Part shown: in pieces, positions 32,976-56,930 of the stretch
Layout: each line of letters starts with the position of its first letter
How positions within the stretch are numbered: the first letter of the stretch is position 1
DNA from: Candidatus Sericytochromatia bacterium
Lineage (GTDB): Bacteria > Cyanobacteriota > Sericytochromatia > S15B-MN24 > VGJW01
Direction of reading: 5' to 3'
NCBI GenBank assembly: GCA_035285865.1
Contig: JAYKHS010000028.1
Span: 151,938 to 215,937, forward strand
Length of the DNA stretch: 64,000 nt
Program-made: the position numbers and the translations under genes
Notes under the pieces: generated by a model
What the model was told of the DNA's origin: nothing
The model's input: the letters and a program-made list of their open reading frames with translations, nothing else
Database searches by the model: none

Positions 32976-33121
32976 CGGTTGCGTTTGGCTGAAGCGACGG
33001 CCTTCTTCATATAGTTCCCGGTTTCCAGGCAACGTCATTTCTCAGGCCTCAGGCCTTCGCAATAGCTCGTTCCTCCCTTCCCAACTTGCTCGGGCCCAGT
33101 GCCCATTCAGGAGTCTACCGG

Positions 33122-34408
33122 ATGAAGAAGTTCGCTCTGCTCGCCTCGCTCGCGGTCGCCGCCGGCACCGTCGGTTGCGGTACGTCCCCCGTTGCGCAGT
33201 CCCAGGCCCTTGGTGGTCAGGTCAACCTGTCGGCCGCTGCCGTACCCGGTCAGGTGCTCGTCAAGCTCAAGCCCGGCGCCAACGCGATGGGTGTGATGGC
33301 TGCCCGCTCCGCGATGGGTCTCCGCAGCGTCGCCGCCCAGAGCGCCACCCTCAACCGCATGGGCTGGACGATGATGTCGTTCGATGCCAGCCGGACTAAC
33401 CTCGCCAGCGTCATCGGTGCCCTCTCGACGGATGCTTCCGTGGCCTATGCCGAGCCCAACTATGTGGCCACCGTGTCCGATTTCCGGCCGATCCGCCCGG
33501 GTGTCGGCGCCACCGGCAAGGCTGGTTACAACGATCCGATGGCCGGCGACCAGTACACCCTGGACAAGGTCGAGACCGCAGCCGCGCACGCCGTGACCGA
33601 GGGTTCCGAGAAGACCCTTCTCGCCATCGTGGACACCGGCGTCGACTACAACCACCCGGATTTCGCCACTCGTGACGGTCGCGGCAGCCGCGTCGTCAAG
33701 GGCAAGGACTTCGCCAACATGGACAATGATCCGATGGACATGCACGGCCACGGCACCCACTGTGCGGGTATTGCTGCCGCCACCTCGAACAACGGCGAGG
33801 GCATCGTCGGCCAGGCTCCTGGCGTCCGCATCCTGGCGGTCAAGGTTCTCGGCGACAACGGTTCGGGCAGCTACGGTGGTGTCGCCAACGGCATCATCTA
33901 TGCCGCCGACCAGGGTTCCTCGGTCATCAGCATGAGCCTCGGTGGCCCGAGCAGCTCGAAGGTTGTCGAGGACGCCTGCAAATACGCCATCTCGAAGGGC
34001 TCGCTCGTGATTGCCGCGATGGGCAATGATGGCCGCAAGGTCAAGAGCTTCCCGGCCGCCATTCCCGGCGTGATGGCCGTCGGTTCCACCAACGTGTCCG
34101 AGAAGCGCAGCAGCTACTCGAACTTCGGCGAGTGGATCTCGCTCGGCGCTCCTGGTGAGGCCATCCTGTCGACGCTGCCGACCAAGGGCAGCCAGATGGG
34201 CAAGGTCTACGGCAAGGCCAGCGGCACCTCGATGGCGACCCCTTGCGCAGCCGGCGTGGCAGCCCTGGTTCGTGACCTGCACCCCGAGTGGGATGCCGCG
34301 ATGGTTCGGGCTCACCTCGAGCGGACCAGCGACGACCTCGGCGACAAGGGCTTCGACATCCAGTTCGGCCACGGTCGCATCAACGCTCGTCGCGCCGTCA
34401 CCGAGTAG
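33122..34408 (+). CDS. S8 subtilisin/thermitase-like protease (lipoprotein)
   Basis: AGGAG RBS, lipobox TVGC, prodomain (YAEPNY), IVDTG, HGTHCAG and GTSMATP. Confidence 0.95.
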   Translation: MKKFALLASLAVAAGTVGCGTSPVAQSQALGGQVNLSAAAVPGQVLVKLKPGANAMGVMAARSAMGLRSVAAQSATLNRMGWTMMSFDASRTNLASVIGALSTDASVAYAEPNYVATVSDFRPIRPGVGATGKAGYNDPMAGDQYTLDKVETAAAHAVTEGSEKTLLAIVDTGVDYNHPDFATRDGRGSRVVKGKDFANMDNDPMDMHGHGTHCAGIAAATSNNGEGIVGQAPGVRILAVKVLGDNGSGSYGGVANGIIYAADQGSSVISMSLGGPSSSKVVEDACKYAISKGSLVIAAMGNDGRKVKSFPAAIPGVMAVGSTNVSEKRSSYSNFGEWISLGAPGEAILSTLPTKGSQMGKVYGKASGTSMATPCAAGVAALVRDLHPEWDAAMVRAHLERTSDDLGDKGFDIQFGHGRINARRAVTE

Positions 34409-35831: not shown

Positions 35832-39173
<3,342 letters not shown>

Positions 39174-39295: not shown

Positions 39296-40429
39296 ATGCG
39301 GAATATTGTGCGTCGACTCGGTATGGGGGCGCTCAGCCTCGCTCTGGGTGCGTGCGCCTCGCCCGCCCTGACGCGTGCGCAGGCGCCAGCGGGCGGCGAT
39401 GTCTCACAGCTTGGCCAACTGCCGGGGTTCGATGTCACGCCCCAGGCAGGACTGGTCGGCAGGGTCGTCTGGCCTGATTCCGCACGTCGGTTGATGGCTA
39501 CCCAGGATGAGGTGGCCAGACGGGCCCGTGTCGGCCTCTTGCAGCCTTCTGGATCCGGTCAGTTCCGAACGGTCTACACCGCTCTGACAGACGAGTTTGG
39601 CAACTTCCAATTTCCTGCCGAGGTGACTGAAGGGGCCAATGGCATTCCGATCGATCCGTCGAAGGTTCTCATCCTGCAAGCAGAGAACGGCCTTAGCAAC
39701 AATGCGGCTGGTTCCAGTTCGGCTCGGTTGCGAACTTTCCTGACGCGTGTGGGGCAGGGTTCGACCGGATACCGCAGCACGTATGTCGATGATCAGAACT
39801 CCGGCATTGTCAACATCGATTTGAACACGACGGCGATGGCGGTCATCAAGTCGCTTCGGGACCAGTCACGCGTTCCTGCCGGCGACATCGTCGCTTTCAT
39901 CCAGTCGGTCACGCCCAAGACAAGCACGGCGAACCCTGCGGTGGTTGGCGCCAAGGAGTCGGTGCTGATCGTCCCCAACTCCGAGTTCCAGACGGTCTCG
40001 ACCTTGGTGGCCAATGTCCTTACGGGCAATCGTGATCCTCTGGCTGCCATCGAACTCAGGGATGCCGAGTCCAACCCACGGCGCTACCTCATCAAGTCCG
40101 AGTCCCAACCCGTCATCCAGGATGTGCGCTACATCGGGACCGGCGCCCCGCGCACCGTGTTCCAACCACTGGATCCCGTTCGGGTGTCCGGGGTCAATCT
40201 TCCGTACTACAGCCAAGGGGTGCTCGAGTTCCAAGGGAAGTCGGGGATCCTGACGGCACCTATCACGGGCGCGGATCTCGAGCAGAATACGTATCTGGAC
40301 ACGCAGGTGCCGCTGGACGTGGTTACGGGCATTGCCCAGTTGCGCTATGTGGCGATCAACGGAACCTTGGCCTATGCCACGATGTCGGTCGTGACGCCCC
40401 TCGGGGGATCGCTTACCCCCAGTCGTTGA
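39296..40429 (+). CDS. Lipoprotein, cluster family A (N-domain paralogous to 48510-50969) with IPT/TIG-like domain
   Basis: GGGAGG RBS, lipobox LGAC; P-I-DV...VRVSG-NL...QVP IPT-like segment. Confidence 0.75.
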   Translation: MRNIVRRLGMGALSLALGACASPALTRAQAPAGGDVSQLGQLPGFDVTPQAGLVGRVVWPDSARRLMATQDEVARRARVGLLQPSGSGQFRTVYTALTDEFGNFQFPAEVTEGANGIPIDPSKVLILQAENGLSNNAAGSSSARLRTFLTRVGQGSTGYRSTYVDDQNSGIVNIDLNTTAMAVIKSLRDQSRVPAGDIVAFIQSVTPKTSTANPAVVGAKESVLIVPNSEFQTVSTLVANVLTGNRDPLAAIELRDAESNPRRYLIKSESQPVIQDVRYIGTGAPRTVFQPLDPVRVSGVNLPYYSQGVLEFQGKSGILTAPITGADLEQNTYLDTQVPLDVVTGIAQLRYVAINGTLAYATMSVVTPLGGSLTPSR

Positions 40430-40559: not shown

Positions 40560-41738
40560 TCAGTTGATGAAGGCGCTGGCCGTTGCCTGATTCAGGTCGG
40601 TGATGCCGAAGTAGACCATGTCGAGAAGACCTGACTCGGGGGGCTGCGCAGGAGCCGTGTAGACACCCTGCTGGTTGATGATGCCCAACTTGCGTCGGTT
40701 CTCGGGGTTGGTGCTGAAGAATTCCGGCTCGGCCTGCGGGCTTGCATTCACCTTGTAGGTGATCTTGGGATTCTGGGGCACGAACTCCGCGTTGTCGGTG
40801 TCGAAGCACTTGCCGACGAAGGTCTGGCTTCCACCGGCGTTGACATCCGCCGACGTCGGCGAGATCGAGAACCTGGAAATGCGCTTGAAGTCAGGCTGCA
40901 GGCTGGCGGTGGCACCGGCGTTCACGAGCTGGATCTTGCCCTTGGTCATGTCACTCTGGACTTGGAACTGCAGCGTCCCTCGGCCCGCATCCGTAAGGCC
41001 ATTCATGACATTCTTCGCCACGACGTTGCCTACCAGAATCTTGAAGGCGTCCGGCGCGTTGGGTTCGAGGATGTCTTCAACGTGCAGCGTGACGAAGAAC
41101 CCCGTGGGACCGGCATCAACAGAAGCCGTGGCGTCAGAACCCACTTGCTCGTAGACTCCCAGCAGGCGCGGTTCGCCGCTGCGGATGAAAGCCAGACGAA
41201 CTTTGTTTCCTGCACCGGGAACGAGGTTGATGTTGGCCGTCGCTTCGGCCTTGAGGTTTCCCATGCCATCTCGATCGTCATAGGCCTTGGCCGTGACCTT
41301 GGCGAAGCCGGTTGGCAAATCCTTGAAGGATGCGTTCGCGGGTGAGGAGGTGTCCGAGTAGAGGTTTATCGATGAGAGCGGGTAATCCACCCCAAACTGA
41401 CGATAGGTGCCGTAGTTAGCCTCGAAGGTCTGGTTGCCGACCGTAACGAAGACTTTGATGGACCCACTCTGGCGAACGGCCAAGGGGAGAGATTGAGCGG
41501 TCCTTGACGTTGGTCTCTGCACGAAGCGGATGGTCAGCTGGGCCGAACGTTCGAGGGAGCCCGGGGCCTGTTCGGTTGCTGGTTCCGTTTCCGGAACCAG
41601 CGCCATGCGCCCGAATGCTCCGGCATCCTGCGTTTCCGGGGCCTGAGCGGGTGGTGTAGCCAGCGTCGTGGCCGCACAGCCCGCAAGCAATGTCGACCAG
41701 AACGGCAATCCGATGCGCATCTGCTTGCCCTGCTTCAC
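40560..41738 (-). CDS. Lipoprotein, cluster family B (RxxQxLP domain + Ig-like domains)
   Basis: Lipobox LAGC; LTIRF..RTAQSLP; ISPTSADV-AG-SQTF and GIINQQGVYTAP (Big-type Ig). Confidence 0.75.
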   Translation of the reverse strand: MKQGKQMRIGLPFWSTLLAGCAATTLATPPAQAPETQDAGAFGRMALVPETEPATEQAPGSLERSAQLTIRFVQRPTSRTAQSLPLAVRQSGSIKVFVTVGNQTFEANYGTYRQFGVDYPLSSINLYSDTSSPANASFKDLPTGFAKVTAKAYDDRDGMGNLKAEATANINLVPGAGNKVRLAFIRSGEPRLLGVYEQVGSDATASVDAGPTGFFVTLHVEDILEPNAPDAFKILVGNVVAKNVMNGLTDAGRGTLQFQVQSDMTKGKIQLVNAGATASLQPDFKRISRFSISPTSADVNAGGSQTFVGKCFDTDNAEFVPQNPKITYKVNASPQAEPEFFSTNPENRRKLGIINQQGVYTAPAQPPESGLLDMVYFGITDLNQATASAFIN

Positions 41739-42361
41739 AGTTCAATCTCCACGGTCAAGCCTGCGGGCTCGGGTGTGGGTTCTGGTGTCGGTGCGAGTGT
41801 CGGTGCCGCAGTGGGCTGAGGGGTAGGATTACTTCCTGGATCCGGAGTAGACGAACCCCCACCACCGGATCCGGGCGTGCCGAACGGAATGGGTGTCGGC
41901 GTCGCGGTGGATCCACCGCCATCCGAGATGGGCGTGTTGAACGGCACGGGCGTTGCTGTTGCGGTGGAGCCGCCGCCACCCGAGATGGGCGTGTTGAACG
42001 GCACGGGCGTGGCTGTTGCGGTGGAGCCGCCGCCACCCGAGATGGGCGTGTTGAAAGGCACGGGCGTGGCTGTTGCGTTGGAGCCGCCGCCGCCCGATAT
42101 GGGCGTGCCGAAGGGCACTGGCGTAGGTGTCGCTGTGGTGCCGCCACCGGCACCATTGTCCCCGACCTTGCCGCCGACGCTGCCATTAGGATTGAAGGTT
42201 GCAGCCGAGCCAGTAGGGGTGGTTGAGGGCTTGGCCGTTGCCGAGGAACGCCTGAAGATTGGCTGCTGAGTAACTGTATCCTCGGCGCACGCCACGATCA
42301 TAAAGGTGGCCGCGACACAGGCGAGCGGTAGAATCCTGCGCCTGGACAGGGTCATCGTCAT
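41735..42361 (-). CDS. Pro/Thr/Gly-rich tandem-repeat lipoprotein (family C)
   Basis: Lipobox IVAC; repeat region; ends GLTVEIEL; GTGA overlap with the next gene. Confidence 0.75.
   Translation of the reverse strand: MTMTLSRRRILPLACVAATFMIVACAEDTVTQQPIFRRSSATAKPSTTPTGSAATFNPNGSVGGKVGDNGAGGGTTATPTPVPFGTPISGGGGSNATATPVPFNTPISGGGGSTATATPVPFNTPISGGGGSTATATPVPFNTPISDGGGSTATPTPIPFGTPGSGGGGSSTPDPGSNPTPQPTAAPTLAPTPEPTPEPAGLTVEIEL
41860..42150 (-). repeat. 57-bp (19-aa) tandem repeat, about 5 copies: TATATPVPFNTPISGGGGS
   Basis: ACGGCACGGGCGT at 41941 recurs at 41998 and, slightly varied, at 42055; diverged copies flank these. Confidence 0.9.
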
Positions 42362-42432
42362 CTTCTTCCCCCGAGTCGAGGTCCCATCGGTACCGTACCC
42401 CGACTCTCCGGCCTTTATGCCTTTCCTGTGGC

Positions 42433-44424
42433 TCAGGGCGCGATGACTGGCGAAACGGTGGCGGTCAGTGCGTGATGGAACGCGATCAGGGCATCCCACT
42501 CGCCGATTGCCGGGCCCGGTCCGTCCGGATCGGTCTTCATGTCCGGAGGTTGCCGCATTTCGGGTGCGATGTTGACTGCCTTGGTGGCGAATCGCTCGTA
42601 GAAATGCACCGCGGAGAACAGGTCCGGTTGGCTGCCATTGTGGAAGTAGGGAGCCGTCTGGGCCACATTGCGCAGGCCGGGAGTCTTGAAGGCCCCCTGA
42701 TCCGTTGCAAGGCCCGTTACGCCACGCCGGCCCGGATCCCCCGTGCCGAACTCGTCGAAGCCGATATTGTGGAACTTGTTGTCGGTGAACAAGGGGCCGT
42801 TGTGGCACGCTGCGCAGTTGGCCTTCCCCGTGAAGATGGCGAGGCCCCTGATCTGGTCTGCCGTCATCGCATTGTCGTCACCCAGCACCCAGCGATCGAA
42901 GGGTGCAGCCGTCGGATTCGGCGTGTTGTCCGGATTGCGACCTGCGGGTGAGACGTGGGCCCGGACATAGGCGGCAACGGCCTTTCGGGCCAGCAGGTCG
43001 TCGGGAGCGGACCCATAGACGGCTTGGAAGTCCTGGACATAGGCGTTGCTGACACGGAGTGTGGCGGTCACGGCATCGCCCGTGGTCGCAAACTCGCGAG
43101 GCCTCGTGAAGACCAGCAGATGCTGGGCCTCGAGTGAGTCGGCACTGCCGTCCCAGTTGAACAGGGTGTTGAACGCCGTATTCCAGATGGTGGGAACGTG
43201 ACGGGGCAGCTCCTTGCCGTCCTTGTCGATGCCCAGCTTGAGGCCGTCTCCCCCTCCCAGGGCATCCTGATGGCAGCTGGCGCAAGACATCTTGCCGTTC
43301 GATGAAAGGGTTGGATCGCCGAACAGACGCTCACCAAGCGCGAACTCCGCGCTCGGTACGGGAGTGATGGCCGGCATCGGCCCCATGTTCCACTGGGCGA
43401 GGTCCGCCCGTCCGAACGCGTGGACCTCGAAAGAGAGGCTGGCTTGCAGCTGGTCATTGCCAAGCCTGACCGCGATGGTTCCGGTGCTTTCGGGGAGCAC
43501 CAGACAACCGCCGCCCTGAACGAACAGTTCCTTCAATCTCAGGTTGGCCCCACAGTCCGCGCCGTTGCAGCGCCTCGACCAGTGAGGCGCCAGCGCCAGG
43601 GGGTCAAGTGGCTTGCCAGTGCTGTCGTAAGCCTTGCCCCGCAGCTCGATGATGCCGCCCGGAGCGTGGGCTGCCGTCTTCAGTACGTCGATGGAGATGG
43701 ATGCGATGCGCGTGATGACGGGTCGATAGGTGTTGGCCTGCCCGGCGACATCCACAGACAGGGTGCCGCTCGTGAAGTCTTCCGGGGGGGTCACGACCAA
43801 GGCGGTATCGCTGCGTGTCGCTATGGCTGAAGGTGGCAGGGGTTGTCCGTTCAGGCGCACTTCGACAGGCAGTCTGCTTGTCCAGCCGAAGCCCTGGCCG
43901 CTGATGCTCAGCTGCTGGCCAGGCAGCGGTTGCTTGGGGTCGACATTGAAAATCGTGACCGGAATGATGTTCTGCAGGGTCAGGACGGCCTGGGTGAGGG
44001 TGTTGGGTTGCACGACCACTTCGGTCGAACCCGTCGCGAGCAGGCCGCCCGAGGCGGACAGTGCCTCGGCCGAGATGGAGACCGTTCCGGGCTCAAGCGG
44101 CTGCAGGCTGCCCGTCGCCAGAGCTTCCGAGCCCTCTCGGACGAGCGTAAGCACCACAGGTGGCCCGCCGGAGCCGTCCCGGGCCTTGAGTGTCAGGGAG
44201 GCAATGTCCGCAGGAATGACCTGAGTCTGGCGTTGCGGCCAGCGCACTCCGACCCGAACCCCGCCTGTCCCCGCCGGAAGGGCCGTACCCGCAGGGTCGG
44301 AAACACGTACGGCCTCCAGGGTCGGGTTGCCGGATGCGGCGGGCAAGCGCGACACCTGACAACCCGTCAGGAGGCTCGAGCCCACCCATGCGACAAGGGT
44401 CAGGACCTGAAGGGCGTTTCTCAT
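42433..44424 (-). CDS. Lipoprotein: family B domain + IPT/TIG + di-haem cytochrome c peroxidase/MauG-family domain
   Basis: Lipobox LTGC; VRWPQRQTQVIP; LGERLFGDP-LS, CASCH, FNWDG, CAACH and FKTPGLRNVA-TAPYFHNG. Confidence 0.85.
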   Translation of the reverse strand: MRNALQVLTLVAWVGSSLLTGCQVSRLPAASGNPTLEAVRVSDPAGTALPAGTGGVRVGVRWPQRQTQVIPADIASLTLKARDGSGGPPVVLTLVREGSEALATGSLQPLEPGTVSISAEALSASGGLLATGSTEVVVQPNTLTQAVLTLQNIIPVTIFNVDPKQPLPGQQLSISGQGFGWTSRLPVEVRLNGQPLPPSAIATRSDTALVVTPPEDFTSGTLSVDVAGQANTYRPVITRIASISIDVLKTAAHAPGGIIELRGKAYDSTGKPLDPLALAPHWSRRCNGADCGANLRLKELFVQGGGCLVLPESTGTIAVRLGNDQLQASLSFEVHAFGRADLAQWNMGPMPAITPVPSAEFALGERLFGDPTLSSNGKMSCASCHQDALGGGDGLKLGIDKDGKELPRHVPTIWNTAFNTLFNWDGSADSLEAQHLLVFTRPREFATTGDAVTATLRVSNAYVQDFQAVYGSAPDDLLARKAVAAYVRAHVSPAGRNPDNTPNPTAAPFDRWVLGDDNAMTADQIRGLAIFTGKANCAACHNGPLFTDNKFHNIGFDEFGTGDPGRRGVTGLATDQGAFKTPGLRNVAQTAPYFHNGSQPDLFSAVHFYERFATKAVNIAPEMRQPPDMKTDPDGPGPAIGEWDALIAFHHALTATVSPVIAP

Positions 44425-44429
44425 CGCGC

Positions 44430-45050
44430 TTACTCCACCACCACGTCCATGGCGGCCTCATCGAGGATGGTCACGGGGATGGTCACGCGCATCCGGCCAT
44501 CGAGGCTCTCGACGATGATGCGGGCCGTGCCCGTCTCATCATCTGCCGCAAAGAGTCCGGGCTCGATCTCGTCCAACTCCACATCCTCGTCCACTTCGAC
44601 CGTGAAGCGCGCCCGGCTATCGATGGCATTGTCGTTCAAGCGGACCTCTGGCACCAATCGGACCATGTGCGGACGAAGCCCCGTGCTTCCCGAACCTGGA
44701 GCAACGCCAAGCTCGATGGCCGTGACACCGTCGTGGTAGGGGGCATCCTCGCCCGCGCCGAGGCGTACCTTGATGCCGGTGGAGAAGATGCCGTCGGGAT
44801 AGCGCTCCGTGTAGGGAGGGGTGGCCGTCGGGATCGGCAGTGCCGAGGACGTCGCGGCGGGCGTTGCGGTCGGTGCGCCAGACGGCTGGCCGAGGGGAGT
44901 CGGCGACGCGGCAGTGCTGCCTGGAGAGGGCAAGACAGTCGACGACGGGACTGGCGATAGCAGGGCTGACGGGACCAGACCTTGGCAGGCGGGCGTCATC
45001 ATGAGCGTCGCGGAGGCCACTCCGACGGCAAGGATGCGCCGTACTTGCAT
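44430..45050 (-). CDS. Pro/Ser/Thr-rich putative lipoprotein with C-terminal Ig-like domain (family C)
   Basis: GGAGG RBS, signal ending TPAC; ends AAMDVVVE. Confidence 0.65.
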   Translation of the reverse strand: MQVRRILAVGVASATLMMTPACQGLVPSALLSPVPSSTVLPSPGSTAASPTPLGQPSGAPTATPAATSSALPIPTATPPYTERYPDGIFSTGIKVRLGAGEDAPYHDGVTAIELGVAPGSGSTGLRPHMVRLVPEVRLNDNAIDSRARFTVEVDEDVELDEIEPGLFAADDETGTARIIVESLDGRMRVTIPVTILDEAAMDVVVE

Positions 45051-45192
45051 CAACCCACCTCCCGAATCAGGACGTGAGGGTTTCGGGTCGGCGGGCGACC
45101 CGGACAGCCCTCGTCTTGCGTGTTCGTCATCGTCACGCACCGCAATAACGACGAGTCAGGAGCCTCGGACGGCATGCGCTCCAGCGACGGCC

Positions 45193-46332
45193 TCATCGTG
45201 CCACCTCGATGTCCACCGTCGCCGTCAAGGGAGGAACGCCCACGACGAAGCCACCACGGGCCACCTTGAGGCATCCCTTGTAGGCGTCCACCACGGATAC
45301 CTGTTGCGTCCCCGCTCCCAAGGCGGTCAAACTGAAGAACTCGTCATCGCCACAATCCAGCTGCACGGGATCGGGATCGTAGCTTGGCAAGGCACCGGTC
45401 AGGCCGTTCGGCGGACGACCCACGGGCTGTCCGAAGGCGTCCAGGAAGGAGACGCTGAAGGTCGCGGTATCTTCGATGCCCATGTAGATGGACTGGGGAG
45501 AGACCGAGACAGAGGCAATGATCTCGATGGTTTCGGGAAGGGTCGCGGTCGAACCCTCGATGTTCAGGACCAGGGAGCCCCCCGTTGCATCCAAGGGTAC
45601 CCGGAACGAGAGCGTATTGTCCGAGGCCCTGCCAAGGGGCGGTTCGCCCGGACGGCTCGCCAGTGCCTCCCCTTCGATGACCTGATCGCCCAGCGTCAGA
45701 CTGTAGCTGGCGCCTCGGCTCGCCCCGAAGCCCGCGCCATCCAGTGTGACGACCTCTCCCCGAAACGCGGTCAGGGGATTGGCCCTCTTGAGCGTCAGCG
45801 GTTGATCGGGCGGGGCCAGGACCACGTGCGCCCGATGTCGGCCATTGGGCTGAAGCCGGACGCGGGTGCTGCCCGACACGACCAGTTCCTTGAGCACATT
45901 GCGGCCTTCGACCACCAAGGTCCAGTCACCGGGTTTGAGTGCGTAGAAGGTCGCTTGGCCGACGGAGCCCACGAGGCGCGGAATGGTGCGACGTTCGACG
46001 GGAACACCGGCTTCGTCTGGCACGACCCGGCATGTCAGTTCTCGAACACCCTCCGGGATGAGCTGGGCCGTTCTGGTCGCAGGCCACCGCACCGACAGCG
46101 TCAGGCTGGCGTTTGTGGTGGCCGGACGAGCTGCGTCAGCCGTTTCCGTGCCGCCGAGTGCGGTCTGGCCGTAGGCCTCGGGAGCAAGGGGGCTGTCGCC
46201 GGGCGTTTCACCTCCCGTGGGCGCGGTGCAGGCCGCCACGAACACGGCAAGGACCAGAGACAAAGCCGAGGCCGTAATCCTAGCCCGGTCGGGGCCCGCC
46301 GAAACGGGGTTGACCGGTGGATAGGGCGCCAA
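45193..46332 (-). CDS. Lipoprotein, family B + IPT/TIG + Ig-like domain
   Basis: Lipobox VAAC; VRWPATRTAQLIP; GEVVTLDGAGFG...LSFRVPLDATGG; ends TATVDIEVAR. Confidence 0.75.
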   Translation of the reverse strand: MAPYPPVNPVSAGPDRARITASALSLVLAVFVAACTAPTGGETPGDSPLAPEAYGQTALGGTETADAARPATTNASLTLSVRWPATRTAQLIPEGVRELTCRVVPDEAGVPVERRTIPRLVGSVGQATFYALKPGDWTLVVEGRNVLKELVVSGSTRVRLQPNGRHRAHVVLAPPDQPLTLKRANPLTAFRGEVVTLDGAGFGASRGASYSLTLGDQVIEGEALASRPGEPPLGRASDNTLSFRVPLDATGGSLVLNIEGSTATLPETIEIIASVSVSPQSIYMGIEDTATFSVSFLDAFGQPVGRPPNGLTGALPSYDPDPVQLDCGDDEFFSLTALGAGTQQVSVVDAYKGCLKVARGGFVVGVPPLTATVDIEVAR

Positions 46333-46346
46333 GGATGAAACCCTCC

Positions 46347-47693
46347 TCAGGGGATGATGGATACCGTGGCCGAAGCCTTGATATTCGAGAAGCCGAACTC
46401 GACGACCTCGCTGCTGCCCGTGGAAACCCCGATGAATTTGCTGGTGTAGGGGGTACCTGGTGCAACCGTGGCACCCGGTGATGGCACGACCGTGGGGGTC
46501 TGGACCTCGAAAGGCGAGATCAGGTAACCGCCCGAGATCGGGTCAATGTAGCTCTTGCCGTAGACCGGCGCCCCCGAGTCGATTTGCTCCCAGCCAAGAT
46601 CGTTGCTCTTGAACTGGAAGACCTTCTCGTAGGCCTGGGCGGCGTACCTTTCCACATTGATGGAGTCCGAGCCGACGCCCATGCTGAAGACGGGAGCGCC
46701 TGGCTTGCCGATGTAGGGTGCAAGATCGATCTCGTCGCTGCCGCTGAACGCCTTGCCGACGAACACGACATCGAAGCTCGAACTGGCCGCGAGAGAGGTG
46801 GTCGCCTGGGGGGTGGCGGACTTCGAGAGCGAGACCGAGGTTGGCGTGATCGTCACTCGGTCGACGCGTGTCGCCGTGTTGGGGCTGCACTTGGTGACAC
46901 CGTTGATGGCCACGCAGAGGGGTTCGTTTCTTCCGAGGTCACCGGGGACCTTGACCGACAACAAGCCTTTGCCGTCCCCAAGCGCCAAGAAGCTACGATT
47001 GGCCGCGCCAATCGGGATACCCGCGTTGTCATTGCCGAAGAAGACCGACATCCCGTTCGCGGCGTCGTCACCCACCCCGTCCAGGCGCGCATTGATGGTG
47101 TCGCCAAGGGCCACCAGTTCAGCGCTCAGCCTGCCGACCTCGTGCACGACGATCGGGATGAGATTCAGCGAGACCTTGGTGTTGACGTTCGGTGCCACCG
47201 TGAACGTGGTGGAGGCGGAGGCCACGACGATGGAGTCCGAGGATACGGCCATGTTGACGGTGTCGTAGCGCGAGTAGGCCACGGCCGACATCGTGGCGGC
47301 ACCGATGGCCACTTGGTCGAAGCTGATCGACGCAGTCGATTCTCCTGCTTTGCGCACGGCGACCTTGGTCAGCGAGACGCTGGGAGAGCCTGACTCGAGC
47401 GTGAAGGCCAGAGCGTTGGTGATGTCCGGAATGACTTGAGTGGTCCGCTCAGGCCAACGAATCTCGAAGGCGATTCGCCCCGAGCGTACCGCTCCGTCCG
47501 AAGGCTGTCCCGTCAGCGTCGGCAACGCACCGCCGCTCGCGCCTTCGGTGGCGGACGTCAGTCGCTGGGCGCTTTCCGGCGACGCGACGCAGGCCCCTAC
47601 GAAAGCCGTGACGGCCAGAGACAAAGCACCGGACAAAACGTGGGCGGGGCGCAAGCGCTTGGGGGTGCGCGACATCAGGTGGTTGTCTCCCAT
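46347..47693 (-). CDS. Lipoprotein, family B + Ig-like domains
   Basis: Lipobox VGAC; IRWPERTTQVIP; ends ASATVSIIP. An alternative ATG lies 18 nt downstream. Confidence 0.75.
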   Translation of the reverse strand: MGDNHLMSRTPKRLRPAHVLSGALSLAVTAFVGACVASPESAQRLTSATEGASGGALPTLTGQPSDGAVRSGRIAFEIRWPERTTQVIPDITNALAFTLESGSPSVSLTKVAVRKAGESTASISFDQVAIGAATMSAVAYSRYDTVNMAVSSDSIVVASASTTFTVAPNVNTKVSLNLIPIVVHEVGRLSAELVALGDTINARLDGVGDDAANGMSVFFGNDNAGIPIGAANRSFLALGDGKGLLSVKVPGDLGRNEPLCVAINGVTKCSPNTATRVDRVTITPTSVSLSKSATPQATTSLAASSSFDVVFVGKAFSGSDEIDLAPYIGKPGAPVFSMGVGSDSINVERYAAQAYEKVFQFKSNDLGWEQIDSGAPVYGKSYIDPISGGYLISPFEVQTPTVVPSPGATVAPGTPYTSKFIGVSTGSSEVVEFGFSNIKASATVSIIP

Positions 47694-48458
47694 CTACCGG
47701 ACCTCGACCGTCACCCGGCCTTCGCCGGAGACTTCGACCGCGAAGCTACGCGTGATGAAACTCTGGACGCCGCCCACCGTGTCGGAAGGCGTCAGCGACT
47801 GCAGCACGATGCTGGTCTTGCCGGGCTTCTTGCCGACCAGGCGCCAGTACTTGCTGGTCCCGCCAAGCGGCAGGACCGCGGCCAACTCGGCTACCGTGAC
47901 GATGCTCGTGTCGTTCGAGACAATCGTCAGATCCTTGTCCAGACGGCCAGGATCGGTGTAGGTGACAAAGGCTTCGATATCCAGTTCCCAACCTTGCTGG
48001 ATGGGCTCGTTGCCTGCCCCCGGATCGACCGATAGAGTGGCGGGTTCCGGCAAGGGCTCGGATTTGCCCTTCGCGGAAACACGAATCGCCGTGGCGAGCA
48101 CCTGACCCACCGGTATGGTCGTCGGTGCAGCGGTCGGGGTCGGTGCAAAGGTCGGCCTGGGGGAAGGCGTCGGCGTCGGAGCCAAGGTCGGAAGCAGACC
48201 GCCGGGGGTGGGGGTCCGGGTGGTCCCGGTGGTGCTGCCAGGAGCGGGTGTCGGCGTTGCCCCGCCGCCTACGTTGCCCCCGGGACCACCCGGAGCCGGG
48301 GTCGGTGTAGGCGTTGCCCTGACGGTACCGGTTCTCGGTGCTGTAGTCGGTTCGTCCGTCGTGGTGGCCACGACGGATGTATCGGCACAGGCCGCCAGCA
48401 GCACCAAGCCCACGGCGGCGTGTCGCATGGTCCGTCGGTATGCGGGATGTCGATGCAT
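47694..48458 (-). CDS. Pro/Thr-rich lipoprotein with C-terminal Ig-like domain (family C)
   Basis: Lipobox LAAC; PTPTP linker; S-DTSIVTV...GKKPGKT-I (Big_2-like); ends GRVTVEVR. Confidence 0.75.
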   Translation of the reverse strand: MHRHPAYRRTMRHAAVGLVLLAACADTSVVATTTDEPTTAPRTGTVRATPTPTPAPGGPGGNVGGGATPTPAPGSTTGTTRTPTPGGLLPTLAPTPTPSPRPTFAPTPTAAPTTIPVGQVLATAIRVSAKGKSEPLPEPATLSVDPGAGNEPIQQGWELDIEAFVTYTDPGRLDKDLTIVSNDTSIVTVAELAAVLPLGGTSKYWRLVGKKPGKTSIVLQSLTPSDTVGGVQSFITRSFAVEVSGEGRVTVEVR

Positions 48459-48509: not shown

Positions 48510-50969
48510 TCAGTTCATCGAAGTGTATTGGACGGAGTTGGTGTTGCCACACCAGCCACCGATCTTATACACGTACCGGCCGCAGACGACCGTGGTGCCG
48601 CCGCCGCCGAAGTTGACGTTGGCATTGCCGTAATAGGGCCAGCAACCTCCGGCATTCTGCGGGGCGTTGCCATCAGCCGTGAGGGTCGAACGACGGACCT
48701 CGGTGCCACCGCACCAGGGACCGAGCATGTAGAGGTACTGTCCTGTGGCGAAGGCGCAAGCGCCGTAGTTGCCGCAGAATGCACCACCGCCGGTTTGGTT
48801 CCAGCCGCCATTGGGCGTACCGTCTGCGTTCAGGTTCAGGTACGACGTGTAGTTGTAGGTCAACCACCAGAGGCGGCCGCCCACATATAGCATCGGGGTT
48901 TCGGCGTTGCCCGTGTAGGGTCCGGTCTGCCAGCCGCCCGAGTACGTGTCGTTGGCCGGGTTGTAGGTCTTGTAGAAGAACGGCGTGCCGCAGTAGCCGG
49001 CCATGCCATACACGCCGCGGCCGCTGCCGACGGAGCTCAGTTCTGACGCGCACCAGTTGATGTCGTCCCGGCTGTTGCCGTTCCACTGGCCCCAGCCGGA
49101 GCCCTGGTTGCCCTCGATGTCGAAGGAAAGGTAGCCAGCAGCACTGCTGCCTTCGTCCTGGAAGATGTAAAACCGCTTGCCGACCCAGTTGTCGAAGGTG
49201 CCGGCCATGTCCTGCTGCCGCAGCGCCCAGCTGTAGTTGCCGGCGAACTGCAAGCCTGATGCAGGGCCGCCGTCGTTGTTCAGGTCGAAGTAGTAAACCG
49301 TGTTCTGTTCGGCCGGGATGATGTAGAACCGCTTGCCCGACCAGAAGCCGGCGTTCATGTTGCCGCCGCCGTGGCCGCCGGACACGTAGGCCCAGTTCGA
49401 GTTGTTCAGGTTGCCGTCGATGGTGGCCACCGTGGAGTCGGCCTGGGCACCCGACGCGATCTGGACGGATACGGCCGTGGCGTTGCTGGCACCGATTCCG
49501 GGTGGCACCACGACACGGATGGTGGTGTTGGTCCAGTACTGGATCATGGCTGCCTTGTTGCCGATCTTGACCGTTCCCAAGGCCGTACCGAACTTGTCCC
49601 CCTTGATCTGGACGTAGCCGTGCGAGCCTACCGACCGCGGGTAGATCTCGGAGATGGTGACCGAGTTGTCGATCATCGTGAGCGGGAAGGGGTCGGAAAG
49701 GCCATTGGGGTTGTATAGGTACACCGGTCCCGAAGTTGCGTCGGCCGGAACCTTGAGATACAAGGCGCGGGATCCGCTGATGGTCGTGTCGTAGGTCGAG
49801 ACCGACGCCGTGGCCAACTTGCCGCTGCTGAGCGGGAAGGCCTTGCCCGTCGTCTTGTCGAGCATCGTGAAGTAGACTTCGTTCTTCGAGATGTTGGCAC
49901 CGGTAAAGAATCCATAGCCTTCGACCTTGCAGTACTCGTCGAACTTGACGGGCAGGCCGGTGCCCAATGGGTACCGCACGATGTTGGTGATGTTGACGTT
50001 GATGCCGGGCGGAACCTGGAAGTCGGTCTCTGCTGCCTTGCCCATCGACTCGACGCGCAGCTTGCCCGAGGCGGCGGTGGACGGCACGAGCACCGTCAGC
50101 TCATTGGACTTGATGCTGACGGGCGTCTGCGGCGGTGCCGTGGAGCCGCCGAAGCGAACCACGGTTCCGCCCGGGTAGGACGCGAAGCCCGTGCCCTTGA
50201 TGGTGACGAGCGTGCCCGGGCCTCCCGAGGTGGGAGAGATGCCCGAGATCGTGACGGCGCCGGAGGTCGGGAGGTTGCCAATGGGTTCCATGCCAGCCAG
50301 CAAGTAGTTCTTGACGGCGGTCGCGATGTCCTGGATCTCGGCGGCGGCGATGGCGCCGACGCTGGCGGCATTCAGCTGCACGCTCGTCGACGTCACGGCA
50401 ACCTTGCCGATGACATCCGCGACGTTGATGCGGCCTTGGCCGACCAGAATGGCCAGGGCGGTGGTGAGTTGGTTGATGACGATGCCGCCACCCACGGTAC
50501 CGTTGCTGATGGACTTCCAACCGCCCGCGGTGGCATCCCACTGAACGATGGTGCGCATGCGCAGGATGGGCGAGCCGGGTGCCGAACTGACCGCCTTGGC
50601 GGCCTCAAGGTAGTAGTAGCGGCCGTCCGGAGGCGCCGAGCCGCCCTGGAAGGTCAGGGTGAAGCCGCCCGAGTTGTCCGACAGGCCCGAGCCGACGGGT
50701 TGATTGGTGGACAGATCGATCAACGAGATGGTGGCTTGGCTCGCGATCGACGCAAGCTGGGCATCCGTCAGTTGCTGGTTCTGGCTGGTGAGCTGGCCCG
50801 GGTCACGGACCGACCCGTACAAGACGTATCGCGCCGGATCCCAAGCGTTCGTGGCGGCAGGCTGGGTCGGATTGTCCGGCGCAACCCCGCCGACGCGCCC
50901 CGGCAGGGACGAACAGCCCACGGCCAACACGATGGCCGACGAAAGACCCCACCGCTTCCACGACTTCAT
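48510..50969 (-). CDS. Large lipoprotein: family A N-domain, ~3 IPT/TIG domains, C-terminal Cys/Trp-rich Kelch-like beta-propeller
   Basis: AAGG RBS, lipobox AVGC; ISPTSGGPGT-VTI-GTGF (IPT); six G-x-(F/Y)-Y blades. This is the 3' part of the listed 2121-aa ORF. Confidence 0.8.
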   Translation of the reverse strand: MKSWKRWGLSSAIVLAVGCSSLPGRVGGVAPDNPTQPAATNAWDPARYVLYGSVRDPGQLTSQNQQLTDAQLASIASQATISLIDLSTNQPVGSGLSDNSGGFTLTFQGGSAPPDGRYYYLEAAKAVSSAPGSPILRMRTIVQWDATAGGWKSISNGTVGGGIVINQLTTALAILVGQGRINVADVIGKVAVTSTSVQLNAASVGAIAAAEIQDIATAVKNYLLAGMEPIGNLPTSGAVTISGISPTSGGPGTLVTIKGTGFASYPGGTVVRFGGSTAPPQTPVSIKSNELTVLVPSTAASGKLRVESMGKAAETDFQVPPGINVNITNIVRYPLGTGLPVKFDEYCKVEGYGFFTGANISKNEVYFTMLDKTTGKAFPLSSGKLATASVSTYDTTISGSRALYLKVPADATSGPVYLYNPNGLSDPFPLTMIDNSVTISEIYPRSVGSHGYVQIKGDKFGTALGTVKIGNKAAMIQYWTNTTIRVVVPPGIGASNATAVSVQIASGAQADSTVATIDGNLNNSNWAYVSGGHGGGNMNAGFWSGKRFYIIPAEQNTVYYFDLNNDGGPASGLQFAGNYSWALRQQDMAGTFDNWVGKRFYIFQDEGSSAAGYLSFDIEGNQGSGWGQWNGNSRDDINWCASELSSVGSGRGVYGMAGYCGTPFFYKTYNPANDTYSGGWQTGPYTGNAETPMLYVGGRLWWLTYNYTSYLNLNADGTPNGGWNQTGGGAFCGNYGACAFATGQYLYMLGPWCGGTEVRRSTLTADGNAPQNAGGCWPYYGNANVNFGGGGTTVVCGRYVYKIGGWCGNTNSVQYTSMN

Positions 50970-51266: not shown

Positions 51267-54200
51267 ATGAGTTCCCGGTTTGACTACATCAAGGTCGGTA
51301 TCGCCTCCCCCGAGCGGATCCTCAGTTGGTCCCGGGGTGAAGTCACCAAGCCGGAGACCATCAACTACCGCACGCTGAAGCCTGAGAAGGACGGTCTCTT
51401 CTGCGAGAAGATCTTTGGCCCCGCGAAGGATTGGGAGTGTCACTGCGGCAAATACAAGCGTGTCCGCCACAAGGGCATCATCTGCGAGCGGTGCGGTGTC
51501 GAGGTCACGGACTCCAAGGTCCGTCGCTATCGTATGGGTCACATCCAGCTCGCGGCCCCCGTGGTGCATATCTGGTACCTGAAGGGCATCCCGTCCTATC
51601 TGTCCCAGCTTCTCGACATTCCCCTGAAGAACCTCGAGAACGTCGTCTACTTCAACGAGTACATCGTCCTGGATCCCGGCACCGGAGCCATCGATGGCAA
51701 GGCCCTCGAGTATGGTCAGACCATCAACGAAGATCAGTACGAAGAGTTCGAGTCCAAGGAGGCTGTCTTCACGGCCAAGATGGGCGCCGAGGCCATCAAG
51801 GAGTTGCTGGACCGTCTGGATCTCCCGGCGGAGCGTGAGAAGCTTCAGGTCGATGCGGAGTCGACCAGCGAGACCAAGCGCCTGAAGGCCATCAAGCGCC
51901 TCCGGGTCGTGGATGCGTTCCTGTCGGCCGGCGCCCGTCCGGCGTGGATGGTCCTGGATGTCATTCCTGTCATTCCGCCCGACCTGCGTCCGATGGTCCA
52001 GCTTGACGGTGGCCGTTTCGCCACGTCCGACCTGAATGACCTCTACCGCCGCGTCATTAACCGAAATAATCGTCTGCGTCGTCTCAAGGACATGGGTGCG
52101 CCGGACATCATCGTCCGCAACGAGAAGCGCATGCTCCAGGAGGCGGTCGACGCCCTGATCGACAACGGTCGTCGTGGCCGCGCCGTCGTGGGCCCTAGCC
52201 AGCGTGCGCTCAAGAGTCTTTCGGACATCATCGAGGGCAAGCAGGGCCGTTTCCGCCAGAACCTGCTGGGCAAGCGCGTCGATTACTCGGGCCGCTCCGT
52301 CATCGTCGTCGGGCCGAACCTGAAGCTGCACCAGTGCGGCTTGCCCAAGGAGATGGCGCTCGAGCTCTTCAAGCCCTTCGTCATGAACAAGCTCGTCGAG
52401 CGAGGCATCGTCCAGAACATCAAGTCTGCCAAGAAGAAGATCGAGCGTGGCGAGACCATCGTCTGGGACATCCTCGAAGAGGTGATCCGCAGTCACCCCG
52501 TGTTGTTGAACCGCGCCCCGACCCTGCATCGTCTGGGTATCCAGGCTTTCGAGCCCCTGCTGGTCGAGGGCCGCGCCATCCAGATTCATCCCTTGGTCTG
52601 CACGGCGTTCAATGCCGACTTCGACGGTGACCAGATGGCCGTCCATGTGCCCTTGTCGGTCGAGGCCCAGACCGAGGCGCGCCTGCTGATGCTCGCCTCG
52701 AACAACGTCCTCTCCCCTGCGACGGGCAAGCCCATCATCACGCCGACCCAGGACATGGTTCTCGGTTGCTTCTATCTGACGGTTGACAATCCCACTGCCG
52801 ATCGCGGACGCGGCCTGCGGTTCAAGAACTTCTCCGACGTGCTTTCGGCTTATGCCGAGGGCCGGGACAAGAGCGATGCCCACGCCGTCCTCGACCTGCA
52901 TGCCAAGGTCGTCGTGCGTTTCGAGGGTGCTCGTGAGGAGGACCTCACGGATGCGGATGAAGTGGCCGCTACCGTTTACACCGAGCCTGAAGCCCGTGCG
53001 TGGCTCGCCAAGGGCCTGCGCGAAGGACGCGTGATGGTCACGACTGCGGGGCGCATCATCCTGAATGAGGTGCTTCCGGAGGAGTTCCCCTTCCTGAACA
53101 AGGTCATCGACAAGAAGGGCCTCGAGCGGATTATCCAGCGGGCTTTCTCGCAGGAGGGGCTCGGCTCCGCCCGCGCCGCACATCTGGCCAACGAACTCAA
53201 GGGTCTCGGCTTCAAGTACGCGACCCGGGCGGGCGTCTCCATCGCCATTGACGATCTCATGATTCCCAAGGCCAAGAAGGAGATGCTCGAGGCGGCTGAG
53301 AAGGACATCGAGAACGCGCAACGCGACTACCTGGACGGTCGCATCACCGAGGTCGAGCGCTACACCAAGGTCATCGATACCTGGGCCCGTGTCACCGAGC
53401 AGCTCAAGGGCAAGGTCAAGGAAGAGTACGACCGCCTCAACTCGGTCTACATGATGGCGTTCTCGGGCGCTCGAGGGAACATCACCCAGGTCAGCCAGCT
53501 GGTCTGCATGCGCGGACTGATGGCGGATCCCTCGGGTCGCATCATCGACTTGCCCATCAAGTCGAACTTCCGTGAAGGCCTGAACCAGACCGAATACATC
53601 ATCTCCTCGTACGGAGCCCGAAAGGGACTGGTCGACACGGCACTGCGCACGGCCGACTCCGGTTACCTCACCCGCCGTCTCGCGGACGTGGCTCAGGACG
53701 TCATCGTTCGGGACGAGGACTGTGGGACGACCCGCGGTCTCGACCTGCGGGCCATCGTCGAGGGCGAGCGCGTGATCGTGCCGCTCGCCGATCGTGTGGT
53801 GGGCCGTGTCGTGGCATCCGACGCACTGGATGCCGAGGGACGCGTGGTCTTCCCGCGCGGTCACCTCCTCGGTTTCGAGGATGCGGATCGGGTTGCTGCC
53901 GAAGCTTTCACCAGCATCCAGATCCGGTCCCCGCTGACCTGCGAGAGCCCTCGGGGCGTCTGCCGTCACTGCTATGGTTGGTCTTTGACGAACCATCAGT
54001 TGGTGGACATCGGCGAGGCCGTGGGCATCATCGCGGCGCAGTCCATCGGTGAACCCGGCACCCAGCTCACGATGCGTACGTTCCATACCGGTGGCGTCTT
54101 CACGGCCGAAGCCACGACGCTTGTCGAGCGGGCGGCCAAGGCCGGCAAGGTGCGCATCGCCGAGCCCTTCGCCACGCGTGAGTTCCGCACGAGGCACGGC

Positions 54201-56930
54201 AAGAGGGTGGACGTGACGGAGCGCGAGGGCCTGATCGAGATCGTCCAGGGCAACAAGGTGCTGGACAAGGTCACGGTGGGTGTGAATTTCGTCATCGACG
54301 TGAAGGATGGCGATGTCGTCGCTGCCGGCGCGCAGTTGGCGCATTCCGACCTCGAGATGCGCGGTGCTTCCCGCAAGTCGATGGAGCAGGCCACCAAGGA
54401 GATTGCGGCCGACGTGGCCGGTATTCTCTGCTTCGAGAACTTTGCCGTCGAGGAAAAGACGGATCGTCAGGGCAATACGACCCGGACGGCCGTGCCGCTG
54501 CCCGGAAAGTCGGGCGAGGCCACGGTCTGGGTCGTCCAGGGCGATGTCTTCTCGCTGCCTACCGGAGCCCACGTCAAGGTCTCCAAGGGCCAGGCCGTCA
54601 AGAAGGACGATGTCATTGCCGAGACCGTGCAGGTCAGCCAGTTGGGCGGTTCGCTCCGTCTCGGTGCCGACATCGAGCTCGAGAAATCTAAGGCAGGCAC
54701 CGTGATCCGCAAGGGTCGCGATGTCTCGGTCATCACGGCTTCTCTGGTCTGCGAGGGGGCAACCTCGGCCGAGGGCACCAAGCTGCGGATTGATGACGAG
54801 GCGGGCCAGCGGATCTTCTCGCTCAAGTGCGGGGATGGTTCGCGTGTGGAGTCCGACCAGGTCATCGCCGAGCACGTCGATGATGAGAACCTCGTCCAGT
54901 CTGCCGGTGAGATTCGGTACGACGGCGAGCCCGTGTTCCTGGACAAGGACCGGCGCACGATCGGCAAGCAGGTTAAGCTGCTCTTCATTCCCGAGGAGCG
55001 CATGACCGTCAACAAGGACATCACGTTGCTCGTCGACGGCATTCGTAACGGCTGCGAGGTCTCTGCCGGGACCGAGGTCGTACGGGATGTCGAAGTCAAG
55101 ACCAACGGTGTGCTCGAGGTGGTCGAGGACAACAACATCATCAAGGAGGTCTATGTCTTCCCGGGTGATCGTTACGAGCTTCCTGCTGGCGTCGAGATTC
55201 TCGTCGAGGATGGCCAGCGGATCGCTACCGGCACGAACCTCGCCGATGGGGTCGTGGCGCGTCAGGGCGGGGTCGTTCGTCGCATCCAGCTGACGGATGG
55301 CGAGGAAGAGACCGGCACAGTGGTGGTCGTTCGCAAGACCGTCGAGCGGGTCGTCAAGGCGGCTCAGCGAGGCATCCCCTTCGCGCCGTCCAGCGAGGAC
55401 ATCAGTCTCAAGTACGAGACTCGTCTCCAGGTCAAGGATGGCGAGCGGGTCAAGGCTGGCGCCGCCCTCGCCAAGACCGAGGTCGCGCTTCGCCTGACCG
55501 GTACGCTGGCGCGTCTGACGGGTCGCGTCGAGATGCCCGAGGCCCCACAGGGAGAGGATGGCGAGGTCGCAGCGGAGCGCGTGCTCTCCATCACGATTCT
55601 CGAGACCCTCACGCTACGTCGGGATCATCCCTCGGTGGCCCTTCGTGCGGGTCACGTGGATCAGGAGGTCGTGACTTACCTGATGCTGGAGGAAGGCTCT
55701 CGTGTGGAACCGGGCCAGGTCGTTGTCCGCTCCGAGATTCGGTCGCACGCCGCCGGCATCGTGGAAGAGCCCCGGCGTCCCGATGATGCTCATGCTTTCA
55801 TCTCTCGCCTTGCCCTGATCACGACCGAACAGGAAATCTCCCAGACGGTTTCCCGCGCGGATGCTGCCGTCGCTGACGGTCAGTACGTCATCGAGGGCAC
55901 GGATCTCGGGGGCGGGGTCGAGGCCACGGTGACGGGCCGAGTTCGTTTCGATGGGGATCGGGTCGTCGTCCGCAAGGGCCGCCCTTATCTCATCTCGCAG
56001 GGTACCCAGCTGCTGGCCAACGACGGCGACATGGTGATGATGGGCGAGCCGCTCGCCATGCTCATCTACAACCGCCAGAAGACCGGTGACATCATCCAGG
56101 GTCTGCCGCGCGTCGAGGAGCTTCTCGAGGCGCGCAAACCCAAGGACAACGCCTTGCTTGCACCGCATGCCGGTGTCATCGAGCTCGACAAGGACCCGGA
56201 GGAAGCGGCCGAGGTTCGCATCGTTGCCGATCGGCCGCTGGTCGAAGGCGAGCCGATGGAAGAAGTGCCCCAGCCCAAGTCCCGGAGCAAGGACAAGTCG
56301 GCTCAGGGCATCACGACCCTCAAAGTCCCGGCTTCGGTCCGCCTGATCGTGGCAAGGGGCGAGCGGGTGGAGCGTGGTCAGCCCCTTACGGACGGTCCGG
56401 TCAGCCCGAAGGACGTCCTGTCCGCGACGGGCTCGGTCGAGGAGACGCAGCGCTTCCTCGTCGACGAAGTCCAGATGGTGTACCGCTCGCAGGGCGTCGA
56501 GATTGCCGACAAGCATCTCGAGGTCATCGTCAGGCAGATGACGCGGAAGGTGAAGGTCGACGAGACTCAGGCTTCCAAGTTGCTGCCCGGTGAGATGGTG
56601 GATTCGCTTGACGCCGAGCGCATCAATCACGAACTCGTCTCCGAGGGCAAGACGCCTGCCAAGCTTAGCCCCGAGCTTCTGGGCATCACCAAGGCCTCGC
56701 TCAACACGGATTCGTTCGTGTCGGCAGCCTCGTTCCAGGAGACGACTCGAGTCCTGACCGAGGCAGCGATTGCTGGCAAGAAGGACTTCCTCCACGGCCT
56801 CAAGGAGAACGTGGTCATCGGCCGTCTGATCCCGGCTGGCACGGGTTACTTCGACCCGGGCGAGGAGCCTGAACCGGTTGGTGCCGAAGCGGCGATCATC
56901 GGGGGAATGCCCGTGGAGCTTCGCCTCTAG
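51267..56930 (+). CDS. rpoC: RNA polymerase beta' subunit, unsplit, with large SI3 insertion
   Basis: Zn ribbon [27 protein letters not shown] and [10 protein letters not shown]. Confidence 0.99.

Follow-up and report, generated by a model that had tools for sequence, protein, structure and literature searches.

The window analysed here is a stretch of 64,000 nucleotides (positions 151,938 to 215,937 of the forward strand of contig JAYKHS010000028.1, assembly GCA_035285865.1) from a Candidatus Sericytochromatia bacterium, an uncultured non-photosynthetic relative of cyanobacteria. The rpoB and rpoC genes are adjacent as a rule. In the window, rpoB (35832-39173) and rpoC (51267-56930, a single open reading frame, or ORF, of 1887 aa) are kept apart by a 12-kb cluster of lipoprotein genes. 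Four of these, called acceptors B1 to B4, share a domain that starts with a beta-strand (strand 1) followed by a loop with a conserved motif. Three others, called donors D1, D2 and D3, end in a free C-terminal strand and lie directly upstream of B1, B3 and B4, respectively. We consider it somewhat probable that the shared domain serves as the acceptor in a strand-exchange coupling assisted by a protease, similar to that of type V pilins and reduced to a portable module.

The seven genes are on the minus strand and each product has a lipobox-like Cys, as judged by pattern. D1 (47694..48458, start codon at 48458 or 48428) is a lipoprotein with a Pro/Thr linker, an immunoglobulin (Ig)/Big_2-like domain and a free C-terminal strand (47697-47720), which scored 12.5 bits on the strand-1 profile described below and could be aligned with other donors. 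B1 (46347..47693) is a lipoprotein with its domain at about 47151-47483, strand 1 and loop at 47427-47480 and the proposed P1 Gln codon at 47436-47438; its orthologues in the genomes G002 and G003 retain R and Q. In B2 (45193..46332), the domain (45808-46113; motif 46054-46107; proposed P1 Gln 46063-46065) is followed by an IPT/TIG and a Big_2-like domain. D2 (44430..45050) is a lipoprotein with a Pro/Thr/Ser linker, a Big_2-like domain and a free C-terminal strand (44433-44456), whose score on the strand-1 profile was low (−4.4 bits), yet which matches the tail pattern. B3 (42433..44424) carries the domain (43966-44268; motif 44212-44262; proposed P1 Gln 44221-44223), a TIG domain, an Ig-like domain and a cargo of the di-haem cytochrome c peroxidase/MauG family (Pfam CCP_MauG, E 2.3e-40). 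This cargo (42433-43400) scored under the cut-off of every NCBIfam equivalog; it seems recurrent in several genomes of the order, with similar C-termini in L025, L026 and L027. The lipoprotein D3 (41735..42361) consists only of a Gly/Pro/Thr linker, with a 57-bp tandem repeat (4.8 copies, 41873-42145), and a C-terminal strand (41738-41761; 6.3 bits); its stop overlaps the start of B4. B4 (40560..41738, start at 41738 or 41720) has a divergent domain with an insert (41178-41552; motif 41484-41540; proposed P1 Gln 41493-41495). The four motifs were at the places given in the original prediction for this DNA (47427-47477 in B1), 40-65 residues past the lipobox-like Cys. Acceptor order and donor orthologues are conserved in two congeneric genomes. 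A plasmid match was sought and none was found.

The general acceptor architecture is a lipobox, the domain, IPT/TIG, a Big_2-like domain and an optional cargo. The shared domain that had been claimed to follow the motif covers about 100 aa and was homologous beyond chance by BLASTP and profile comparison. In pairwise BLASTP, B3 matched B2 with E 2e-15 and B1 with E 3e-11. The divergent B4 matched B1 at only 6e-4; a profile including B4 gave 5.5e-22. A hidden Markov model (HMM) built from the alignment of the four domains drew four more paralogues, on other contigs, in the first round (E 1e-9 to 9e-6), and later rounds gave 12-14 copies in the bacterium's own genome. A loose six-frame regular expression run across the window gave three true matches and one spurious, off-frame match. 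With a 22-row domain profile, all 47 genomes of the class Sericytochromatia were positive (1 to 65 matches each, 13 in the own genome), as against 0/154 genomes sampled from the rest of the phylum. The own genome is 83%-complete and its congeners are 94-98%-complete. A wider search covered 1.84 billion representatives; about half of the best 150 were giant Ig-repeat proteins matched only in part, and these were excluded. The domain is nameless, as predicted: no Pfam or NCBIfam family covers it, and sequence searches of Pfam, NCBIfam and PDB gave no family name, the PDB matches being repeat or generic Ig. None of 22 domains scanned at E<=1 matched the Pfam Carboxypeptidase-regulatory-like family. 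All scores were under 0.9 in an Atlas feature search with a window protein. A TdpA_C lead, obtained in the Atlas via a homologue, fell outside the aligned portion and was dropped.

Loops were counted in 130 sequences under 70% identity, with the conserved Pro as the reference from which positions were numbered backwards. They are 1-12 residues long and carry the motif [R/F/Y/L]-x-[V/A/T/I]-Q. P4 was R in 80 loops, F in 22, Y in 22 and L in 4 (R/F/Y/L in 128/130), P2 was mostly V, A, T or I, P1 was Q in 108, A in 8, L in 7 and S in 4, and P1' was mostly A, V or L. The R-x-x-Q motif first described is real; its Gln is kept better than the Arg, in whose place 48/130 loops have Phe, Tyr or Leu. 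Among orthologues in three genomes, R and Q were constant in 12/12 loops while P3 and P2 varied in each set; 202/353 other columns were invariant in the same comparison. A role of the Gln as transglutaminase acyl donor was set aside because 22/130 loops lack Gln and a second lineage of proteins has Arg there.

Cleavage after Arg, as put forward in the original prediction, was not borne out: Arg and Lys are absent from 13/130 loops, Gln is the more conserved residue (108/130) and the own genome has no match to the gingipain family C25. A cut after Gln, with Arg as P4, is more likely from these sequences, since Arg takes the Gln position in the second lineage. We hold it distinctly improbable that an Arg-specific protease, e.g. 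clostripain (C11), cuts after Arg. Such an enzyme would be served by the P4 Arg of 80/130 loops and by the Arg or Lys found nearby in many others; C11 is over its cut-off in 45/47 class genomes, with one copy in the own genome, and the Arg of the second lineage immediately precedes a conserved hydrophobic-Pro stretch. It would find no Arg or Lys in 7 loops even when the end of strand 1 is counted, and Phe and Tyr stand in place of Arg at equal spacing from Gln. C25 itself was over cut-off in 1/47 class genomes and in neither the own genome nor its congeners. The sole positive genome (G027; five 2,100-aa proteins) has 9% contamination, and its C25 proteins may be contaminant sequence. S8 subtilases gave 33 matches in the 2.8 Mb genome, and the majority have starts resembling a lipobox. 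A large or aromatic P4, a small or branched P2 and Gln or Leu at P1 suit the habits of subtilases better than those of clostripain. Because no protease travels with the loci, an S8 subtilase as the cutting enzyme is a guess. Two S8 genes lie within the window (29058-30341 and 33086-34408); in the own genome two S8 genes adjoin acceptors, and one S8 protein carries a tail, which together make a weak link.

Proteins of the second lineage have a Gly-Cys-Gly-Gly lipobox, then the acceptor domain, Big_2 and cargo, according to full-length matches. Arg was at the Gln position in most of 14 metagenome loci, one of the search patterns having already contained Arg, and an upstream tail was seen by eye at 6/14. 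The Arg site resembles the Thr-Arg-Ala site of Bacteroides pilins. In a contig scan with one protein of this lineage, only its cargo matched (4 loci). Similar proteins may occur in Armatimonadota.

The tails of the upstream genes are 8 residues long, have the form small-x-hydrophobic-x-hydrophobic-x-hydrophobic-x and copy strand 1 of the next protein. By eye, 8 of the 14 domain genes of the own genome had a clear tail-bearing neighbour and 2 further ones had one loosely. Counting started from 163 domain matches, taken from the own genome and from retrieved loci; the 129 with a coding ORF upstream were used and the other 34 dropped. On a profile built from acceptor strand 1 only, at least 4 bits were reached by 49/129 upstream ends, 4/57 downstream ends, 17/138 of the acceptors' own ends and 38/1556 background ORFs. 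The tail pattern, which was written after the tails had been seen, matched 78/126 distinct upstream ends, 9/57 downstream ends, 24/136 own ends and 14/1556 background ORFs, 7 of these 14 being donors themselves. The donor strands postulated earlier are thus present, as cognate strands, on neighbouring genes. Cognate tails were closer to their own strand 1 than to that of shuffled partners (1/2000 shuffles; 40 pairs under 40% identity), and this likeness was in the buried positions (1/2000) and not in the exposed ones (636/2000). The bodies that carry the tails are unrelated: Big_2-like domains, bare linkers, an S8 protease, FecR proteins and a propeller-like protein. At L105:6090-8021 (S8 protease) and L040:290-1417 (FecR-domain protein), a linker and a donor tail were seen at the end of the protein, with an acceptor gene directly downstream.

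By the strict pattern, 11/136 acceptors have both domain and tail. None of the four B proteins does, and these look like tips. Single-domain proteins of 147-160 aa with domain and tail were found at L072:1631-2086, L044:864-1304, L048:1372-1833 and L049:1459-1938, and runs of three or four tail-to-domain genes contain such proteins. They are candidate minimal pilins or adaptors.

The fold of the domain was examined in models. B2, modelled with AlphaFold2 (AF2), has three domains, with a predicted local distance difference test (pLDDT) score of 85. The middle domain corresponds to IPT/TIG (6d2y, Z 11.3, root-mean-square deviation (rmsd) 2.3, 84 aligned) and the third to an S-layer/Big_2-like Ig domain (4uid, Z 8.6, rmsd 2.4, 87 aligned); Foldseek with the three-domain model returned generic Ig chains only. 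The B3 domain, modelled alone from 130 aligned rows, has seven strands. The loop that follows its strand 1 shows little order, in line with the original prediction (residues 11-20, pLDDT 59 vs 83-94 in other full blocks), and the transthyretin-like fold suggested there agrees with both the model and its fold neighbours. The latter were ExsB (2yjl, Z 9.2, rmsd 2.6, 93 aligned), the middle (linker) domain of a lyase (1nkg, Z 9.1, rmsd 2.5, 84 aligned), BT_1938 DUF4876 (4q1z, Z 8.7, rmsd 3.3, 89 aligned), fibronectin III domains (Z about 8), the Bacteroidia adhesins 3up6 (Z 8.0, rmsd 3.0, 102 aligned), 4qdg and 3liu (both Z 7.8), Mfa3 (5nf4, Z 7.8, rmsd 2.9, 98 of 105 aligned) and the AspS2 pilotin (5wec, Z 7.7, rmsd 3.5, 97 aligned). 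Of the 105 residues, 98-102 are aligned with the adhesins and 75-93 with most other matches. We take 3up6, 4qdg and 3liu to be type V pilins, 5nf4 being the only one of these adhesin entries so titled. The Atlas model of one homologue gave template modelling (TM) scores of 0.51 and 0.56 with the FimA and Mfa2 clusters. From the models, the domain fold is compatible with a pilin N-domain, without singling pilin out.

These neighbours also bear on a reading that we regard as very improbable, in which the domain is an ordinary structural Ig or transthyretin spacer, or a pilotin-like peptide-binding domain, and the tails are terminal Ig strands or edge binders. The best fold matches are indeed a pilotin (ExsB), a lyase linker domain and fibronectin III, and some of the acceptors' own Big_2 ends score on the strand profile (the 17/138 above). 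The tail, though, is either an additional strand beyond the end of the Ig domain or the sole strand on a bare linker. It also shows a strong association with the gene immediately preceding the domain, and each of two families (the acceptors and family A, described below) has a tail mimicking its own strand 1.

The complex of D2 and B3 was modelled with B3 starting just past the Gln, i.e. with strand 1 removed, and the C-terminal 122 residues of D2. Its score was 0.62, that of the best of 3 controls 0.00; the mark for this score was reached by 116/157 solved complexes and 2/215 mismatched pairs. Contact agreement between runs was at least 96% and the pLDDT of the partners at least 87. Tail residues 125-135 run alongside strand 7 in parallel orientation and are in contact with strand 4, in the slot of strand 1 of B3. 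Because B3 was modelled already truncated, the complex supports fit, not binding. In Mfa1 the anchor strand shares a sheet with strands 4 and 7, and the donor strand takes its place (PMC13655056). The original prediction had asked whether strand 1 is an edge strand. The modelled tail docks instead between strands 4 and 7, in the central anchor-strand position as in Mfa1, and strand 1 is for this reason probably central rather than at the edge.

In the proposed coupling, donor and acceptor would both be exported as lipoproteins, as the sequence pattern suggests. Strand 1 of the acceptor, tied to the lipid anchor, would fill the groove between strands 4 and 7 and be followed by the variable-length loop with its [R/F/Y/L]-x-[V/A/T/I]-Q motif, as sequence and models indicate. 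A surface protease, with one of the many S8 subtilases as the best guess, would read P4-P1 and cut past the Gln. In the model, the C-terminal strand of the upstream donor would then take the place of strand 1, and the cargo (a di-haem peroxidase-like domain or Ig stalks) would give up its own lipid and become attached at the end of the long linker of the donor. Most units would be pairs of an anchor and a tip. Since proteins with both domain and tail exist, chains are possible, and such proteins could lengthen the pairs into short ones.

The tail and complex evidence does not require the cut. Exchange could proceed without proteolysis, the displaced strand 1 remaining tethered by the flexible loop, both lipids being kept and the motif serving as a folding latch or as a signal for an export or assembly factor. 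In that case the Ile/Leu-Pro past the Gln could pack on the domain. The loci have no linked protease. We judge this unlikely. The strict P4/P1 spacing in a disordered loop of variable length suits a protease site, and the type V analogue requires cleavage in the corresponding loop (PMC13655056). Nor is the motif a general lipoprotein signal: it was present in 25/188 lipoprotein-like ORFs against 10 expected, and 12 of the 25 belong to family A or B by hand tally. A general export signal was rejected as an explanation of the motif on this count. R-x-x-Q was also seen in other lipoproteins of the own genome (C14:125371-127452, C18:15437-17470, C30:175550-177514 and C26:72345-73712), in some after short Asn/Gly-rich repeats; these are possibly further acceptor families.

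Several points weigh against a protease-assisted coupling of type V kind. We infer cleavage, the cut site, the protease, the release from the lipid and the fibres alike. Synteny of proteases with acceptor loci was 1/80 for S8 and 0/80 for C11. The gene directly upstream of B2 has no tail and B2 has no adjacent donor; it may share another donor or take the last Ig strand of B1. In a tree-aware test of the tails (79 rows), only 4 supported independent pairs were available and p was 1, so that co-evolution of tail and strand is inseparable from kinship in these data. The D2-B3 model, made with a cognate tail and a pre-truncated acceptor, is akin to a split-protein test, and it may have passed through likeness to solved beta-sandwiches. 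As to the fold, the type V pilin matches (Z 7.8-8.0) are level with fibronectin III and below ExsB (Z 9.2), and Foldseek with the B3 domain gave nothing at E<=0.001, FimA prepilins appearing weakly (E 0.02-0.05). No pilin was matched by the sequence profile. The Arg of the second lineage was partly built into its search, as said above.

Family A has a member on either side of these seven genes. Its short member (39296..40429, plus strand) has a distantly related first domain, and the related motif announced for it was found as an R-x-x-M-A variant at 39452-39502 on the same strand; its own C-terminal strand is similar to strand 1 of family A. A family A gene is also next after rpoB in G002 and G003. 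The long member (48510..50969, minus strand) has a degenerate loop motif in its first domain, TIG domains, a C-terminal cargo and no tail. Family A and the acceptor family are linked by a profile probability of 82% (E 1e-5, 11% identity). After the first strand of family A, R was kept in 28/38 and Q in 31/38. The family A tail type was found in 15/16 short members, 1/12 long members, 9/32 upstream genes and 133/1556 background ORFs.

Type V pili (FimA/Mfa1 stalk, FimB/Mfa2 anchor and tips), known from gut and oral Bacteroidia, resemble the present system in their lipoprotein precursors and transthyretin-like N-domain. They also have an anchor strand lodged between strands 4 and 7, with a conserved motif in the loop behind it, and their anchors lack a cleavage site (PMC13655056). 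Further likenesses are C-terminal donor strands on anchor-like partners without the motif (found in just 2/34 short donors here) and tips without a donor strand (compare the strict tail pattern on 11/136 acceptors). Here, by contrast, a single acceptor domain is followed by IPT/TIG and Big_2-like domains instead of a second transthyretin domain (B2), a single 8-residue donor strand is grafted on unrelated proteins, and Gln, not Arg, is at the inferred P1, with no gingipain in the own genome. The system is also outside Bacteroidia, would mostly form pairs and has no sequence-level match to type V pili, which a 2026 paper describes as unique to Bacteroidia (PMC13655056). As they have no second transthyretin domain and no gingipain and are outside Bacteroidia, the acceptor domain proteins are not type V pilins, though they would work like type V strand exchange.

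The ExsB/AspS2 pilotins (2yjl, 5wec) are lipoproteins with the same fold. Here, however, the domain heads multidomain proteins, with between 2 and 65 matches per genome across most of the class, and has tail-bearing neighbours. An ExsB-type pilotin (single-domain and secretin-binding) was rejected: the acceptors are multidomain and no secretin was seen among the ORFs of the locus. Carboxypeptidase-regulatory-like or prealbumin-like domains (1nkg middle domain, 4q1z) share the fold and differ in that the acceptor domain has no Pfam match; they are not known to have a conserved loop motif or cognate donor tails. No description of such a coupling was found in the literature as judged from titles and abstract openings, subscription papers and bioRxiv supplements being outside this scope.

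A wider picture is offered tentatively, and we hold it rather doubtful. The class would use a plug-and-socket display in which an 8-residue C-terminal tag and a protease-activated socket of about 100 aa place enzymes and adhesins on interchangeable anchors. The 147-160 aa proteins and the short family A members would polymerize into minimal type V-like fibres, with a subtilase maturing them after Gln. Given the second lineage, whose P1 is Arg, and similar-looking clusters in Myxococcota, Ignavibacteriota, Spirochaetota and Vulcanimicrobiota, the mechanism would be widespread and not specific to Bacteroidia. If the proposed coupling is true, protein engineering would gain a tag-and-socket pair of very small size. 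The coupling would account for a large unannotated lipoprotein family and predict exact mature N-termini and partner pairs. It would also mean that protease-triggered strand exchange operates, in reduced form and with another protease specificity, throughout a cyanobacteria-related class and in one or more further lineages.

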